30,476 nucleotides of DNA, from the IMG/VR virus record IMGVR_UViG_2802429234_000002; one strand, given 5' to 3'. The notes beneath the pieces were generated by a model. The model was not told the DNA's origin and searched no databases. It saw only the letters and a list, made by a program, of their open reading frames with translations. The DNA is from a virus. Taxonomy: Duplodnaviria; Heunggongvirae; Uroviricota; Caudoviricetes. Positions 3,596 through 9,794 of this stretch are shown here, in pieces. Every line of letters starts with the position of its first letter. Position 1 is the stretch's first letter. The position numbers and the translations under genes were made by a program.

Positions 3596-4092
3596 CAGTG
3601 ATGACGCTTAATCTCGTTGAAAAACAGCCAGCAGCTATGCGCCGGATAATTGGTAAGCATCTGGCCGTCCCTCGCTGGCAGGATACATGTGATTATTATA
3701 ATCAGATGATGGAACGCGAACGGCTAACGGTTTGCTTTCATGCGCAGTTAAAACAGCGTCACGCAACGATGCGTTTTGAAGAAATGAACGACGTCGAACG
3801 TGAACGGCTGGTTTGTGCAATTGATGAATTGCGCGGGGCATTCTCAAAACGCCGTCAGGTTGGCGCAAGTGAGTATGCATATATTAGTTTTTTAACAGTC
3901 AGTCAGCGTCGCACTTTATTTATGCACGCACGGCTGACAGAAAAAGAATTTAACCAGCCATACTGGCGAATTAATGAAGAGTCATGTTACTGGCGTGATG
4001 CTTTATTCCGTGCATTACGTGAATTATTCAGTCTGTTTGAGTATGCACCGACAATTCTGACGTCGGTAAAACCAGAGCAATATCTGCATTAA
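3592..4092 (+). CDS. B: Putative replication protein B-like (166 aa)
   Basis: 166-aa ORF translationally coupled to the upstream small gene; position and length match what I recall for P2 gene B; no motif confirmation. Confidence 0.5.
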   Translation: MTVMTLNLVEKQPAAMRRIIGKHLAVPRWQDTCDYYNQMMERERLTVCFHAQLKQRHATMRFEEMNDVERERLVCAIDELRGAFSKRRQVGASEYAYISFLTVSQRRTLFMHARLTEKEFNQPYWRINEESCYWRDALFRALRELFSLFEYAPTILTSVKPEQYLH

Positions 4093-4155: not shown

Positions 4156-4368
4156 ATGCATACAGTTTCTGAAAATCAGTGCGGTAAATACGCATTAATG
4201 CTGCAACAGGCCAGAACCGAAGCACAGGCTGACGCAGCAACGCGCTTCTCTTCTCATCTTGACGCCATGATTCGCCACATCACAAAGGCGGAGTTATCCC
4301 GCGTGGAGATAGTCGAGTTGCTCAGTCAGGAGTCTGCCAAATTCCATAATCTAGGACTCAATAAATAA
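4156..4368 (+). CDS. Small early protein (hypothetical), P2 orf80-region equivalent
   Basis: 70-aa ORF with SD GGAGA upstream; in the run of small ORFs between B and A. Confidence 0.55.
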
Positions 4369-4382
4369 CAGGAAAGTTGGAA

Positions 4383-4628
4383 ATGACAAATACAAAATGG
4401 TTCAGGAAACGCTTAACAGATTATCAACTTTCATTACTTAAAAAATTAGATGACAAGACTCCACTACATCCTTCAAGCGATGTCTTCCGCTCCTGGCCTA
4501 GCCGTGTGGAAAAAACATTTATAGCAATGGGGAAATGGGGACTTGTGACCAAATCAAGAGAAGGTTTCTGTATTACCGATAATGGCCGGGAAATGATTGA
4601 TTCTGCGGAGAGGGCATACAGCGAATGA
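4383..4628 (+). CDS. Small early protein (hypothetical), 81 aa from ATG 4383
   Basis: SD-like CAGGAAAG upstream; track ORF starts at TTG 4377; stop overlaps the next start (ATGA at 4625). Confidence 0.55.
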   Translation: MTNTKWFRKRLTDYQLSLLKKLDDKTPLHPSSDVFRSWPSRVEKTFIAMGKWGLVTKSREGFCITDNGREMIDSAERAYSE

Positions 4629-4915
4629 AAAATATATTGCTTAATAACTGGCTGAAGATTTCAGTTATGAAAAACGGTGATTTGTCGCTAGCTGATATTA
4701 AACGCGATAAAAACACTGGGGATATGGTGGAATCAACTATAGCCATTTATGCGGATAAATTAAACCTCCTGTCTGATGTGGTCAATTTACTTGTTAAACG
4801 CGCTGTATTCCACAAGCAAATTTCCTCCGTGGATGAACTGACGAAATTAACGACAGAAATCACCAGCTATTGCGCTGATGAATTTAAAAACCTTAACGAC
4901 AAAAGGAACTGGTAA
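4625..4915 (+). CDS. Hypothetical protein, 96 aa, AT-rich
   Basis: Translationally coupled at both ends (ATGA at 4625, TAATG at 4913-4917); visibly AT-rich coding sequence. Confidence 0.5.
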   Translation: MKNILLNNWLKISVMKNGDLSLADIKRDKNTGDMVESTIAIYADKLNLLSDVVNLLVKRAVFHKQISSVDELTKLTTEITSYCADEFKNLNDKRNW

Positions 4916-5139
4916 TGCCGGACAACGTAGATTTTATTCAGGAACAACAGGCTGAATTACTGGAGCGCCAGATTAACGCGGCAAGGGTAAAACATTGCGG
5001 TGCTTCTGCGCTGGTTTGCGAAGAGTGTGATGCACCAATACCTGCTGCCCGTCGTGCGGCTTATCCGTCAGCCACGCGTTGTGTTTCCTGTCAGTCAGTC
5101 TTTGAAGCAAAAAACAAACATTACCGGAGAACGGCATGA
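4915..5139 (+). CDS. C4-type zinc-finger protein (TraR/DksA-like)
   Basis: 74 aa with CxxC...CxxC (HCGASALVCEECDAP ... RCVSCQ); positional equivalent of the zinc-finger ORF in the P2 B-A interval. Confidence 0.65.
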   Translation: MPDNVDFIQEQQAELLERQINAARVKHCGASALVCEECDAPIPAARRAAYPSATRCVSCQSVFEAKNKHYRRTA

Positions 5140-5411
5140 GTATTCGTATTGAAATTGGCGAACGTTATGTCGTTACCAGTGACAGCTTTCAGTTTATTCT
5201 CCACGAGAAAAAGAGAGCGGAAAGCGGTAAAAACGCCGGTCAGGAATGGCTGGCGGTGGTTGGTTATTACCCGAAATTAAGCCAGCTCGTTTCCGGCCTG
5301 ATGCATCACGATATTCTGACCGGAAGCGCAAAGTCTTTTGCTGATTTAAACGCGCAGGTTGAGCAACTCAGCAGGCGTTGTTCAGAGGCTTTTGGCTCAT
5401 ATGGCCGTTAA
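5136..5411 (+). CDS. Small early protein (hypothetical)
   Basis: 91-aa ORF with SD GGAGA upstream; overlaps the start of A. Confidence 0.55.
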   Translation: MSIRIEIGERYVVTSDSFQFILHEKKRAESGKNAGQEWLAVVGYYPKLSQLVSGLMHHDILTGSAKSFADLNAQVEQLSRRCSEAFGSYGR

Positions 5412-7677
5412 AGCCTCCGGGCGTTTTGTCCCTCCGTCAGCATTTACCGCAGGCACCGGTAAGGCGTTTACCGGTGCTTATGCATGGAACGCGCCACGCG
5501 AGGCTGTCGGGCGCGAAAGACCCCTTACACGTGACGAGATACGTCAGGTGCAAGGTGTTTTATCCACGATTAACCGCCTGCCTTACTTTTTGCGTTCGCT
5601 GTTTACTTCACGCTATGACTACATCCGGCGCAATAAAAGCCCGGTGCACGGGTTTTATTTCCTCACATCCACTTTTCAGCGTCGTTTATGGCCGCGCATT
5701 GAGCGTGTGAATCAGCGCCATGAAATGAACACCGACGCGTCGTTGCTGTTTCTGGCAGAGCGTGACCACTATGCGCGCCTGCCGGGAATGAATGACAAGG
5801 AGCTGAAAAAGTTTGCCGCCCGTATCTCATCGCAGCTTTTCATGATGTATGAGGAACTCAGCGATGCCTGGGTGGATGCGCATGGCGAAAAAGTATCGCT
5901 GTTTACGGATGAGGCGCAGGCGCATCTGTATGGTCATGTTGCTGGCGCTGCACGTGCTTTCAATATTTCCCCGCTTTACTGGAAAAAATACCGTAAAGGA
6001 CAGATGACCACGAGGCAGGCATATTCTGCCATTGCCCGTCTGTTTAACGATGAGTGGTGGACTCATCAGCTTAAAGGCCAGCGTATGCGCTGGCATGAGG
6101 CGTTATTGATAGCTGTCGGGGAGGTCAATAAAGACCGTTCTCCTTATGCCAGTAAACATGCCATTCGTGATGTGCGTGCGCGCCGTCAGGCAAATCTGGA
6201 GTTTCTTAAATCGTGTGACCTTGAAAACAGGGAAACCGGCGAACGCATCGACCTTATCAGTAAGGTGATGGGCAGTATTTCTAATCCTGAAATTCGCCGG
6301 ATGGAGCTGATGAACACCATTGCCGGTATTGAGCGTTACGCCGCAGCAGAGGGTGATGTGGGGATGTTTATCACGCTGACCACGCCGTCAAAGTATCACC
6401 CGACACGTCAGGTCGGAAAAGGTGAAAGTAAAACCGTCCAGCTAAATCACGGCTGGAACGATGAGGCATTTAATCCAAAGGACGCGCAGCGTTATCTCTG
6501 CCGTATCTGGAGCCTGATGCGCACGGCATTCAAGGATAATGATTTACAGGTCTACGGTTTGCGAGTCGTCGAGCCACACCACGACGGAACGCCGCACTGG
6601 CATATGATGCTTTTTTGTAATCCACGCCAGCGTAACCAGATTATTGAAATCATGCGTCGCTATGCGCTCAAAGAGGATGGCGACGAAAGAGGAGCCGTGC
6701 GAAACCGTTTTCAGGCAAAACACCTTAACCGGGGCGGTGCTGCGGGATATATCGCGAAATACATCTCAAAAAACATCGACGGATATGCACTGGATGGTCA
6801 GCTCGATAACGATACCGGCAGGCCGCTGAAAGACACTGCAGCGGCTGTTACCGCATGGGCGTCAACGTGGCGTATCCCGCAATTTAAAACGGTTGGTCTG
6901 CCGACAATGGGGGCTTACCGTGAACTACGCAAATTGCCTCGTGGCGTCAGCATTGCTGATGAGTTTGACGAACGCGTCGAGGCTGCACGCGCCGCCGCAG
7001 ACAGTGGTGATTTTGCGTTGTATATCAGCGCGCAGGGTGGGGCAAATGTCCCGCGCGATTGTCAGACTGTCAGGGTTGCCCGTAGCCCGTCGGATGACGT
7101 TAACGAGTATGAGGAAGAAGTCGAGAGAGTGGTCGGCATTTACGCGCCGCATCTCGGCGCGCGTCATATTCATATCACCAGAACCACGGACTGGCGCATT
7201 GTGCCGAAAGTTCCTGTCGTTGAGCCTTTGACTTTAAAAAGCGGCATCGCCGCGCCTCGGAGTCCTGTCAATAACTGTGGAAAGCTCACCGGTGGTGATA
7301 CTTCGTTACCGGCTCCCACACCTTCTGAGCACGCCGCAGCAGTGCTTAATCTGGTAGATGACGGTGTTATCGAATGGAGTGACCCGGAGGTCGTGATGGC
7401 GCTCAGGGGCGCATTAAAACACGGACTGAGAACACCAAATCGTCAGCAAAGAAACGGAATCCCGTTAAAACCGCATGAAATTGCACCATCTGCCAGACTG
7501 ACCAGGTCTGAACGATTGCAAATTACCCGTATCCGCGTTGACCTCGCTCAGAACGGTATCAGGCCGCAACGATGGGAGCTTGAGGCGCTGGCGCGTGGCG
7601 CGACCGTAAATTATGACGGGAAAAAATTCACGTATCCGGTTGCTGATGAGTGGCCGGGGTTCTCGTTACCCATTTGA
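5401..7677 (+). CDS. A: Replication initiation protein A (rolling-circle HUH endonuclease)
   Basis: 758 aa from ATG 5401 (N-terminus MAVKASGRF as recalled for P2 A); HUH-type motif PHHDGTPHWHMMLF and tyrosine motif YIAKYISK; track ORF begins at TTG 5359. Confidence 0.9.
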   Translation: MAVKASGRFVPPSAFTAGTGKAFTGAYAWNAPREAVGRERPLTRDEIRQVQGVLSTINRLPYFLRSLFTSRYDYIRRNKSPVHGFYFLTSTFQRRLWPRIERVNQRHEMNTDASLLFLAERDHYARLPGMNDKELKKFAARISSQLFMMYEELSDAWVDAHGEKVSLFTDEAQAHLYGHVAGAARAFNISPLYWKKYRKGQMTTRQAYSAIARLFNDEWWTHQLKGQRMRWHEALLIAVGEVNKDRSPYASKHAIRDVRARRQANLEFLKSCDLENRETGERIDLISKVMGSISNPEIRRMELMNTIAGIERYAAAEGDVGMFITLTTPSKYHPTRQVGKGESKTVQLNHGWNDEAFNPKDAQRYLCRIWSLMRTAFKDNDLQVYGLRVVEPHHDGTPHWHMMLFCNPRQRNQIIEIMRRYALKEDGDERGAVRNRFQAKHLNRGGAAGYIAKYISKNIDGYALDGQLDNDTGRPLKDTAAAVTAWASTWRIPQFKTVGLPTMGAYRELRKLPRGVSIADEFDERVEAARAAADSGDFALYISAQGGANVPRDCQTVRVARSPSDDVNEYEEEVERVVGIYAPHLGARHIHITRTTDWRIVPKVPVVEPLTLKSGIAAPRSPVNNCGKLTGGDTSLPAPTPSEHAAAVLNLVDDGVIEWSDPEVVMALRGALKHGLRTPNRQQRNGIPLKPHEIAPSARLTRSERLQITRIRVDLAQNGIRPQRWELEALARGATVNYDGKKFTYPVADEWPGFSLPI

Positions 7678-7892
7678 GTAAAAACACAACGTGATTTGAT
7701 ATGGCATTGAATGGCTTATGCGGAGCAGTTATGGGGCAGCCGAAGGTCAATAGCATGCTGAATTAGAAGGCTAAATGCTATTGAGTGACTAGCATGTCGG
7801 TAAGGACAGCCGTTTGATCCGGGTCATAAAAGGCCATCCATTTAGTCTAATAAAATCATTGCGGGTAACCTTATGTCGACGCATAATTCGTC

Positions 7893-7907
7893 TTGAGCGA
7901 AGTCTTG
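7893..7907. repeat. Direct repeat copy 1 (TTGAGCGAAGTCTTG)
   Basis: Exact 15-bp match to 8157-8171. Confidence 0.85.
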
Positions 7908-7937
7908 TCAGTCTTTCATCGTATTGATGATGGGCGC

Positions 7938-7967
7938 AAAAAAACCACCCTGGCAGGTGGTTTTTTT
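7938..7967. terminator. Bidirectional rho-independent terminator (A7 - GC hairpin - T7)
   Basis: AAAAAAACCACCCTGGCAGGTGGTTTTTTT; serves the end of A (plus) and the small minus-strand peptide gene. Confidence 0.8.
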
Positions 7968-7979
7968 GTTTGAAGCATA

Positions 7980-8093
7980 TTAAAGCATAATGCTGACATT
8001 GATATTACTGACGTTTACTGACAAACCACTCGGACTACCGTTTGGATAGCCAAAGAGGGCCAGAACGAGAATGCAGTAATAGCATTTCTTCAT
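7980..8093 (-). CDS. Small hydrophobic peptide, 37 aa (MKKCYYCILVLALFGYPNGSPSGLSVNVSNINVSIML)
   Basis: ATG at 8091-8093 preceded by AGGAGG with 4-nt spacer (minus strand); hydrophobic N-terminal segment; terminator immediately downstream; lies where P2 carries tin/old. Confidence 0.4.
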   Translation of the reverse strand: MKKCYYCILVLALFGYPNGSPSGLSVNVSNINVSIML

Positions 8094-8156
8094 ATTGCCT
8101 CCTGTAAGTAGAGGGCAACTTCCACCGGTATATGCGCTTCTTAGGTGGAATGACTT

Positions 8157-8171
8157 TTGAGCGAAGTCTTG
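8157..8171. repeat. Direct repeat copy 2 (TTGAGCGAAGTCTTG)
   Basis: Exact 15-bp match to 7893-7907; the two copies bracket the terminator and the small peptide gene. Confidence 0.85.
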
Positions 8172-8238
8172 CCCTGAAATAATGCTCTGTTTAAACGCAA
8201 AGTGATTTGGCATATCACCGAACAGAGAGCCGGAAAAA

Positions 8239-8286
8239 CACAACATATAGTATGTCGTTGTTTCTAGACATACATTCTATGTTGTG
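8239..8286. repeat. Imperfect inverted repeat (18/20-bp arms, 10-nt spacer)
   Basis: CACAACATATAGTATGTC ... GACATACATTCTATGTTGTG; outer 9 bp and inner 6 bp pair perfectly. Confidence 0.7.
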
Positions 8287-8571
8287 TAACAAGGGCTTTG
8301 CATTAAACATGTTTGAGATTTTATTGATGTAGCTCAAAGTAAAAAACAGAGACTACGGATGATAAGGTCTTGAAAGCAATGTAAATTTTTTAAGGTTGCC
8401 AATTGCTTAAAAATGTACAGTTGCGGTATGGCGTACTTAAAAAGCTATGCATGCAACAAGTGAATGTTTTTGCATGCGTTGGGGATGTCCGTTCAGGCTG
8501 CGTGCGGTCAGGACTGGTGCGGATCCATAGTATCTATGCAACTGCATTAAAACCGCCCCGTGAAGCGGGCG

Positions 8572-8590
8572 GGCGAGGCGGGGAAAGCAC
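8572..8590. other. cos: cos site (19-nt cohesive-end sequence of the P2 family)
   Basis: GGCGAGGCGGGGAAAGCAC matches the P2 cohesive end as I recall it; located between A and Q as in P2; a GC-rich hairpin lies just 5' of it. Confidence 0.8.
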
Positions 8591-8732
8591 TGCGCGCTGG
8601 CGGTGGTGCTGATTTTATTTTTTCAGCGTCTGAGCGCGTCGTGATGGCGTTTAGATTGTGCGCCGGGGCGTTGGTGTGTCTGCGGGATGTTTTGTGCGGT
8701 GGTGAGCGTGTGAGGGCGTGATGACAGGGTGT

Positions 8733-8754
8733 AAAAAAGCCGCCCGCAGGCGGC
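8733..8754 (-). terminator. Rho-independent terminator after Q
   Basis: On the minus strand GCCGCC-TGCG-GGCGGC followed by TTTTTT, 5 bp past the Q stop. Confidence 0.75.
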
Positions 8755-8759
8755 GATGT

Positions 8760-9794
8760 TCAGCCGTTGTCAGTGTCCAGTGAGTAGTTTTTAAAGCGGA
8801 TGACCTCCTGACCGAGCCAGCCGTTTATTTCCCGAATCCTGTCCTGTAACGGGATAAGCTCATTGCGGACAAAGACCTTTGCCACTTTCTCAATATCTCC
8901 CAGCGACCCGACGTTCTCCGGCTTGCCTCCCATCAACTGAAAGGGGATGCGGTGCGCGTCCAGCAGGTCAGCGGCGCTGGCTTTTTTGATATTAAAAAAA
9001 TCGTCCTTCGTTGCCACTTCACTGAGCGGGATAATTTTAATGCCGTCGGCTTTCCCCTGTGGGGCATAGAGAAACAGATTTTTAAAGTTGTTGCGGCCTT
9101 TCGACTTCACCATGTTTTCGCGGAGCATTTCGATATCGTTGCGATCCTGCACGGCATCGGTGACGTACATGATGTATCCGGCATGTGCGCCGTTTTCGTA
9201 ATACTTGCGGCGGAACAGCGTAGCCGACTCATTCAGCCAGGCAGAGTTAAGGGCGCTGAGATATTCCGGCAGGCCGTACAGCTCCTGATTAATATCCGGC
9301 TCCAGCAGGTGAAACACGGAGCCGGGCGCGAAGGCTGTCGGCTCGTTGAAGGACGGCACCCACCAGTACACATCCTCTTCCACACCACGGCGGGTATATT
9401 TTGCCGGTGAGGTTTCCAGTCTGATGACCTTACCGGTGGTGCTGTAACGCTTTTCCAGAAACGCATTACCGAACACCAGAAAATCCAGCACAAAGCGGCT
9501 GAAATCCTGCTGGGACAGCCACGGATGCGGGATAAATGTCGAGGCCAGAATATTACGTTTGACGTAAATCGGGGAGCTGTGATGCACGGCAGCACGCAGG
9601 CTTTTTGCCAGACCGGTAAAGCTGACCGGTGGCTCATACCATCTGCCGTTACTGGTGCACTCGACGTAATCCAGAATGTCACGGCGGTCGAGTACCGGCA
9701 CCGGCTCACCAAAGGTGAATGCCTCCATTTTCGGGGCGCTGGCGGTCATTTTTTTTGCCGCAGGTTGCGGTGTTTTCCCTTTTTTCTTGCTCAT
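8760..9794 (-). CDS. Q: Portal protein
   Basis: 344 aa, same length as P2 Q; precedes the terminase large subunit; 1-nt stop/start overlap with P. Confidence 0.9.
   Translation of the reverse strand: MSKKKGKTPQPAAKKMTASAPKMEAFTFGEPVPVLDRRDILDYVECTSNGRWYEPPVSFTGLAKSLRAAVHHSSPIYVKRNILASTFIPHPWLSQQDFSRFVLDFLVFGNAFLEKRYSTTGKVIRLETSPAKYTRRGVEEDVYWWVPSFNEPTAFAPGSVFHLLEPDINQELYGLPEYLSALNSAWLNESATLFRRKYYENGAHAGYIMYVTDAVQDRNDIEMLRENMVKSKGRNNFKNLFLYAPQGKADGIKIIPLSEVATKDDFFNIKKASAADLLDAHRIPFQLMGGKPENVGSLGDIEKVAKVFVRNELIPLQDRIREINGWLGQEVIRFKNYSLDTDNG

Follow-up and report, generated by a model that had tools for sequence, protein, structure and literature searches.

What fills the short interval between the replication gene A and the cos site of a P2-like prophage that carries neither tin nor old? 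The window (the whole stretch of 30,476 nucleotides (nt) analysed here, IMG/VR virus record IMGVR_UViG_2802429234_000002) is a P2-like prophage in which gene A ends at 7677 and the cos sequence GGCGAGGCGGGGAAAGCAC begins at 8572. The intervening 894 base pairs (bp) are therefore too short for tin or old, which bears out a first-pass annotation of the DNA that had put the interval at about 900 bp without these genes. Our favoured answer, to which we give a probability of about 0.6, is that the region is a type I toxin-antitoxin-like cassette of a family undescribed so far. On comparative evidence there is a coding gene, accompanied by conserved putative promoters, terminator and hairpins, by a co-varying pairing between two predicted RNAs and by a helix that competes with this pairing. 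The limits of the whole were obtained by sensitive blastn of the window against L003-L007, L038 and L041:

7838-8345, both strands involved: whole cassette, roughly 500 bp.

The coding unit of the cassette is a single small open reading frame (ORF):

7980-8093, minus strand: putative toxin gene of 37 codons, with the ATG at 8093-8091 and the stop codon TAA at 7980-7982.

Its product is MKKCYYCILVLALFGYPNGSPSGLSVNVSNINVSIML, and AGGAGG stands at 8103-8098, 4 nt ahead of the ATG. The first-pass annotation had named this ORF, with its AGGAGG Shine-Dalgarno (SD) sequence and a terminator downstream, as the only convincing coding unit of the interval, and both statements hold. When the two strands were compared among relatives, the 37-codon frame was the sole conserved ORF. 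Conservation of the frame was checked in these relatives: it is exactly 37 codons long in every lineage read from DNA, with the ATG and GGAG kept, and persists in copies from phages, chromosomes, plasmids and metagenomes whose DNA is 72-100% identical; one library protein (P0031) has 38 residues. The variable sites number 13, 11 and 25 at codon positions 1, 2 and 3, respectively, and the pairwise ratio of nonsynonymous to synonymous substitution rates is 0.08-0.35. Judged by these substitutions, the ORF is a coding gene under purifying selection, with the peptide consensus M-x5-CILVL-x-LFGYP-x4-SG-x-S-x2-V. The 88-amino acid extension sometimes given by gene callers stays open in the lineage of the window, but every other lineage has stop codons within it; a protein search with this extension returned near-identical clusters only. 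The coding-type substitution pattern also bears on the idea that the region is a non-coding phage cis-element, for replication, packaging or transcription control, with an incidental ORF. The location between the replication gene and cos and the several inverted repeats would fit such an element, but the cassette is also present on plasmids without phage genes, and relatives insert cargo between it and cos while leaving it undisturbed; we regard this explanation as extremely improbable.

We then come to the RNA partner of the ORF. The first-pass annotation had proposed an antisense RNA running across 7980-8250 on the plus strand. The comparative evidence does point to an RNA partner, but not to one in cis across the ORF, as no conserved plus-strand promoter was found in 7980-8250. 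The partner would instead be the product of a separate convergent gene downstream of the ORF, which pairs with the leader through a direct repeat:

~7894-7968, plus strand: candidate antitoxin small RNA of ~75 nt, composed of a 5′ seed, a middle hairpin and a terminator.
7859-7887, plus strand: putative small-RNA promoter, with the -35 TTGCGG (7859-7864), a 17-nt spacer and the -10 CATAAT (7882-7887).
7894-7909, plus strand: small-RNA 5′ seed UGAGCGAAGUCUUGUC.
7911-7935, plus strand: middle hairpin of the small RNA, with covariation.
7937-7968, both strands: bidirectional intrinsic terminator common to the two convergent transcripts (inverted repeat I1).

The -35 element is TTGCGG or TTGCGA in all lineages read and CATAAT is invariant, while the spacer varies freely; upstream of the promoter lies an A/T-rich block, TAATAAA (7849-7855). 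The predicted fold of the small RNA has a mostly open 5′ end followed by the middle hairpin and the terminator, with a z-score of -3.26. In the middle hairpin, both sides have changed in six of the nine pairs across 12 distinct sequences, and 85% of the cells are paired, against 52-62% in whole-structure controls whose 3′ partners were slid. The G·U pairs of this hairpin fit the plus strand only, several of them being A·C on the other strand. The toxin transcript would end before reaching this hairpin, and the conservation of the hairpin therefore speaks for an RNA made from the plus strand. The terminator, a perfect 13-bp stem (100% complementary) flanked by an A-run and a T-run, begins 11 nt past the ORF stop, is nearly invariant in all lineages and is the only place where the small RNA and the toxin mRNA would overlap. 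A search of 7000-9200 with the Rfam 15 covariance models at E up to 1 gave only sub-threshold, terminator-driven partial matches (RNAI, Phe_leader), those of terminator type falling on both strands of 7937-7968; no known RNA family (Sok, Sib, Rdl, IstR, OhsC, OrzO, par RNA II, RyfA/TimR region) was matched. A promoter-like site on the minus strand at 7911-7883 was rejected, because it needs TGTCAG, which is unconserved in other lineages.

Pairing between the two predicted RNAs would be mediated by a perfect 15-nt direct repeat:

7893-7907, plus strand: direct repeat copy 1, TTGAGCGAAGTCTTG, in the small-RNA seed.
8157-8171, minus strand: direct repeat copy 2, the small-RNA target in the toxin leader (target 8157-8175, pairing extended to 8173).

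When the interval was shuffled 1000 times, a repeat of this length appeared in one shuffle only. Because copy 2 is located in the leader of the ORF and the transcripts are convergent, the two RNAs are complementary at this site, ~65 nt upstream of the SD sequence. The predicted duplex comprises 14-18 bp, with energies of -25.6 to -34 kcal/mol, in nine of nine lineages. The core of copy 1 is invariant in these lineages, and every internal substitution of the duplex preserves pairing:

Window type: C to U in the small RNA opposite G, giving G·U.
L043 and L057: A to G in the mRNA opposite U, giving G·U.
L075: C to U in the mRNA opposite G, giving U·G.
L074: both sides changed, G-C becoming A-U (compensatory).

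The sole change that breaks a pair affects the extreme end of the duplex, in the L008 type. Repeats that flank an ORF and its terminator could also be a recombination or insertion scar (a target duplication), in which case the plus-strand element would be the terminator of the early operon, located as it is 260 nt past gene A, and there would be no functional RNA-RNA pairing. Natural recombination between the repeats has indeed taken place in one contig (L066, below). However, the two copies are identical or wobble-compatible in nine lineages while the remaining cassette is ~25% diverged, and one change is compensatory on both sides; the pairing-preserving substitutions are therefore evidence against a neutral insertion scar. 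Moreover, the promoter hexamers and the co-varying hairpin are conserved on plasmids without gene A. We consider the scar very unlikely.

The contig in question, L066 (human gut metagenome contig OWPP01003510, match at 5950-5993 on the minus strand), lacks the toxin ORF and the terminator, and its leader target repeat joins directly to the flank of the small-RNA-side repeat (GGTGGTAAGACTTCGCTCACGGCAAATTATGC). The sequence is that of a natural deletion derivative, produced when the two direct repeats recombined.

How could pairing at a site so distant from the SD sequence affect translation? The leader of the predicted toxin mRNA contains a series of elements:

8274-8302, minus strand: putative toxin promoter, with the -10 TAGAAT (8279-8274), a 17-nt spacer and the -35-like TGCAAA (8302-8297).
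8185-8227, minus strand: nearly invariant leader element, a nested hairpin (CUCUGUU...GGUGAU...AUCACU...AAACAGAG).
8120-8150, minus strand: leader hairpin with covariation (UUCCACC...GGUGGAA).
8094-8118, minus strand: SD-covering hairpin of the consensus fold, in which the anti-SD UUGCCCUCU (8118-8110) pairs with AGGAGGCAA (8103-8095).

The promoter pattern ATGCAAA-N17/18-TA(G/A)AAT is conserved in all lineages, and the transcript is predicted to start at ~8267 and to end at ~7937, giving ~330 nt. No LexA-type box (CTGT-N8-ACAG) was seen by eye in the module. A 5′ hairpin downstream of the promoter is kept with differing sequences in the lineages examined. One pair of the nested hairpin has changed in a compensatory manner (A-U in the window, G-C in Citrobacter and G·U in Enterobacter), and an alternative long-range pairing is predicted between CUCU of this element and GGAGG. 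At 8120-8150, CCACC/GGTGG of the window is replaced by CCGCC/GGCGG in other phage copies and by CCG.CAC/GTG.CGG in plasmids. The SD-covering stem shows the compensatory variants CUG/CAG, UAA/UUA and CG/CG between lineages.

The anti-SD has a second possible partner. A seven-base arm, AGGGCAA (8175-8169), overlaps the 5′ part of the small-RNA target and can pair with the anti-SD instead. The combination is AGGGCAA:UUGCCCU in the phage copies and GGUGGCA:UGCCGCC in L004 and L057; L043 has UGCCACC, whereby a U·G pair becomes U-A, and L074 has GGUGACA:UGUCACC. In L074, a change of one target nucleotide is matched by changes in the small RNA and in the anti-SD, the two partners with which it can alternatively pair. 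This helix and the 5′ hairpin were counted per sequence and not by alignment column, because MAFFT places the insertions and deletions differently in the phage and plasmid lineages. The overlap of the target with the competing helix suggests a three-way switch.

Two features of the upstream region were recorded besides. A long imperfect palindrome at 8238-8287 (ACACAACATATAGTATGTC ... GACATACATTCTATGTTGTGT) covers the predicted toxin -10 and start site. The other phage lineage retains no more than the 10-nt ends of this palindrome, and the plasmid copies show no evident counterpart; it could serve as an operator or form a hairpin at the 5′ end of the RNA. Beyond the toxin promoter, on its upstream side, 8300-8388 is homologous to the Klebsiella plasmid copies and contains a hairpin, TTTGAG-N15-CTCAAA (8312-8338).

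From these elements we infer transcription, the direction of the switch, toxicity and a biological role. A minus-strand mRNA of ~330 nt would encode the 37-residue peptide, its long leader holding the SD sequence paired to the local anti-SD. A convergent RNA of ~75 nt would pair with the toxin leader through its single-stranded 5′ end. When the small RNA is absent, the target arm would hold the anti-SD and the ribosome-binding site would be able to open; when the small RNA is bound, the anti-SD would be freed and would close the ribosome-binding site. The duplex between the small RNA and the leader may also undergo cleavage. If the cassette is lost or shut off, translation of the more stable mRNA would follow, with damage to the membrane by the peptide. 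The toxicity of the peptide is assumed because of the analogy with known systems and the tight multilayer repression. Its role is likely the stabilisation of the carrier (prophage or plasmid) and/or abortive infection, as suggested by the types of carrier and by the position beside a defence hotspot (PMC9122126).

The properties of the peptide itself were then considered. It is identical to ECW_m2278 of Escherichia coli W (A0A0H3F021_ECOLW), annotated ‘hypothetical’, and is found on at least 1000 contigs; the copy in E. coli W (ATCC 9637) is 99.8% identical. Among 1.84 billion representative proteins there were seven matches, all of the same family. Searches of Pfam and NCBIfam at E up to 10 and of the PADLOC defence profiles gave no match, the PHROGs gave a single match of unknown function (E = 0.34), and nothing usable was obtained from the PDB sequences. 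The first-pass annotation had described a hydrophobic N-terminal stretch; it is present, but only ~13 residues long, with a best 11-residue Kyte-Doolittle mean of 2.2-3.2 at residues 4-16. The Ser/Asn-rich tail is uncharged, with zero charged residues among the last 15. AlphaFold2, run on the single sequence, gave a helix at residues 3-14 at low confidence (predicted local distance difference test score 60). Insertion into the inner membrane via residues 4-16 is probable on this modelling.

Such a peptide might be a non-toxic small membrane protein, one that excludes superinfecting phages, for example, or that modulates a membrane protein of the host; the small RNA would then tune its expression, without any addiction or suicide module. 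The short hydrophobic segment and the polar, uncharged, beta-prone tail are atypical of pore-forming type I toxins, there are zero matches to toxin families, and the cassette adjoins a hotspot known for exclusion genes (PMC9122126). Nevertheless, we find this explanation unlikely, though clearly less so than the two considered above: the leader is elaborate and holds the SD sequence paired, while a repressing RNA with its own promoter and stand-alone carriage on large conjugative plasmids are hallmarks of toxic cargo. In addition, L066 has the ORF deleted and the RNA-side flank retained.

Several observations weigh against the type I reading. The short hydrophobic segment and the uncharged tail set the peptide apart from most known type I toxins. 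The two transcription starts are predicted, and the -35 of both predicted promoters fits the consensus at only three of six positions; neither promoter was listed by a promoter scan, in the case of the small RNA because of this -35. When the partition function of the full-length mRNA was calculated with the target blocked, the change in SD accessibility was inconsistent between lineages. The consensus folds and long-range pairings given by RNAalifold depended on whether the leader was folded by itself or within the whole mRNA, and therefore only the helices supported by substitutions were kept. Much of the leader is invariant and hence uninformative on any structure. Finally, the cassette lineages are few (about nine) and related.

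The distribution of the cassette was assessed in several collections. Homologues were found in P2-like prophages and as Klebsiella, Enterobacter and Citrobacter copies. The homology between phage and plasmid copies spans 7838-8345 and reaches 8388 against the Klebsiella copies; with 7850-8300 as a query, the plasmid matches span query positions 32-436. Of 5,426 complete E. coli genomes, 152 carry the cassette, nearly always on the chromosome, and it is also present in three INPHARED phage records and 27 IMG/VR contigs. In PLSDB it is found at ~74% identity on about 400 plasmids of Klebsiella and Enterobacter, mostly IncFIB/IncFII and 347 of them conjugative. The species-representative genomes, scanned with a peptide-degenerate pattern, contained one copy, in Citrobacter freundii, and three further matches of this pattern were judged to be due to chance; as the scan gave only C. 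freundii, E. coli K-12 does not carry the cassette. In E. coli, the copies examined belong to P2-like prophages and immediately follow gene A. On the plasmids, the surroundings are insertion sequence elements and metabolic genes, and phage genes are missing from the vicinity. Judged by these contexts, the cassette is an autonomous mobile unit and is not specific to P2. Beneath the match, the E. coli records listed have no RefSeq feature, and the annotation in all phage and plasmid rows read is ‘none’ or ‘hypothetical protein’. No description of the peptide, the repeat or the cassette was found in the literature searched, which left out most subscription journals.

Some copies have particular surroundings. 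L062 (Ga0268256_1001162) contains two diverged copies of the cassette on the minus strand, at 3664-3707 and 6585-6628, 2.9 kb apart; their seeds are almost identical, which raises the question of cross-talk between the small RNAs. On the plasmid pJ53-KPC_Vir (L003), a gene annotated as a DinQ-type type I toxin is located at 5399-5536, ~1 kb from the cassette. The most diverged copies, L074 and L075 (ENA ERZ28658541 scaffold_3893; GCA_001654985.1 LXEU01000048.1), have as neighbours a secretin gene (PF00263) and a number of very small ORFs, a context that was not found in the plasmid collection.

Is the hotspot then devoid of cargo, as the first-pass annotation had it? This is true for the window phage and for L040, but in close relatives cargo accompanies the cassette, inserted at ~8440 or in the space that separates cos from the portal gene Q (8760-9794 on the minus strand in the window). 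The neighbourhood is a hotspot known for exclusion and defence genes (PMC9122126), and a 2026 survey found zero P2 genomes in which both main defence hotspots were devoid of genes (PMC13586616). In L042, an ImmA/IrrE peptidase gene and two hypothetical genes (4335-6270) are inserted between the cassette and cos, at the equivalent of window 8437-8444. In L039, a gene for an AAA ATPase and a hypothetical gene (4466-6641) stand between cos and the portal gene, at the equivalent of 8597-8760.

Two anomalies of public records came to light in this region. At least ten ‘complete’ E. coli chromosomes begin exactly at the ATG of the prophage gene A (window 5401), for example NZ_CP066839.1, NZ_CP119008.1 and NZ_CP074033.1, with the cassette at record positions 2450-2900; these assemblies were apparently rotated to the phage gene, mistaken for a replication-initiator gene. 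The record NZ_CP026085.1, labelled E. coli DH5alpha, contains a 99.6% identical version of the gene A-cos interval, which is unexpected in a K-12 derivative and suggests a mislabelled strain.

How does the cassette compare with known systems? The par locus of the Enterococcus plasmid pAD1 (Fst mRNA RNA I, antitoxin RNA II) has convergent promoters, a bidirectional terminator, direct repeats and an SD-covering stem (PMC7472228). The cassette resembles it in the convergent promoters and the common bidirectional intrinsic terminator, in the complementarity through direct repeats, in the SD-covering stem and the 5′ helix, in a peptide of ~35 residues and in carriage by plasmids and phages. Whereas par has two direct repeats (DRa and DRb) over the translation initiation region, the cassette has one, located upstream of the SD sequence. 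The peptide differs from the Fst/Ldr toxins in having neither the PXXXG(C) motif (by eye), nor a charged tail, nor a match to Pfam Fst/Ldr. The cassette also differs in its hosts, the Enterobacteriaceae, in which the known relatives of par (Ldr/Rdl) use a cis-antisense RNA.

The E. coli systems tisB/istR-1, zorO/orzO, shoB/ohsC and dinQ/agrB are alike in encoding a small hydrophobic peptide and a separate small RNA, in a complementarity of ~16-30 nt at the distal 5′ leader and not at the start site, and in a structured, largely untranslatable primary mRNA (PMC3919570, PMC11264685). In this group, however, the small RNA is located upstream and is divergent, whereas in the cassette it is downstream and convergent with a common terminator, and there is no similarity of peptide or RNA sequence. 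The hok/sok system, together with pnd, srnB and flm, shares the carriage on plasmids and prophages, the long-range inactivation of the mRNA and a proposed function in post-segregational killing or phage exclusion, but the cassette has no Hok domain (PF01848), no overlapping mok ORF and no antisense overlap of the translation start. The tin and old genes of P2 occupy the same genomic neighbourhood and are unrelated; they encode large proteins and are absent here. Unlike them, the cassette adjoins gene A, upstream of the insertion point of the relatives' cargo (~8440).

The cassette is thus placed, as far as sequences allow, outside any named family testable here. It probably works like a type I system, a view that we hold with the same confidence as the overall reading: by in silico criteria the locus has a small-RNA gene complementary to the predicted toxin mRNA, and the 37-residue peptide fits the generic description of a small (<60 amino acids) hydrophobic protein at the locus. 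A bolder reading, which we think somewhat less likely than not, is that of a new Enterobacteriaceae type I family. Its convergent layout would resemble that of par and be joined to a three-way switch through competition of the small RNA with the anti-SD for one leader arm. Its function, in the P2-like prophage hotspot as well as on large Klebsiella IncF resistance and virulence plasmids, would be stabilisation or abortive infection.

The comparative support for the predicted RNA logic is unusually clear. Only a few naturally co-varying nucleotides underlie the predicted switch, which is therefore easily testable by compensatory mutations. The gene has been missed by RefSeq and the Prokaryotic Genome Annotation Pipeline in the E. 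coli genomes read, and is ‘hypothetical’ elsewhere, although it is present in 152 complete E. coli genomes and on ~400 clinically important Klebsiella plasmids. If this reading is confirmed, the type I systems of Gram-negative bacteria would gain both a toxin family and a regulatory layout that are new. The cassette would then be a candidate persistence determinant of IncFIB/FII resistance plasmids, and the ‘empty’ P2 hotspots would not be empty.

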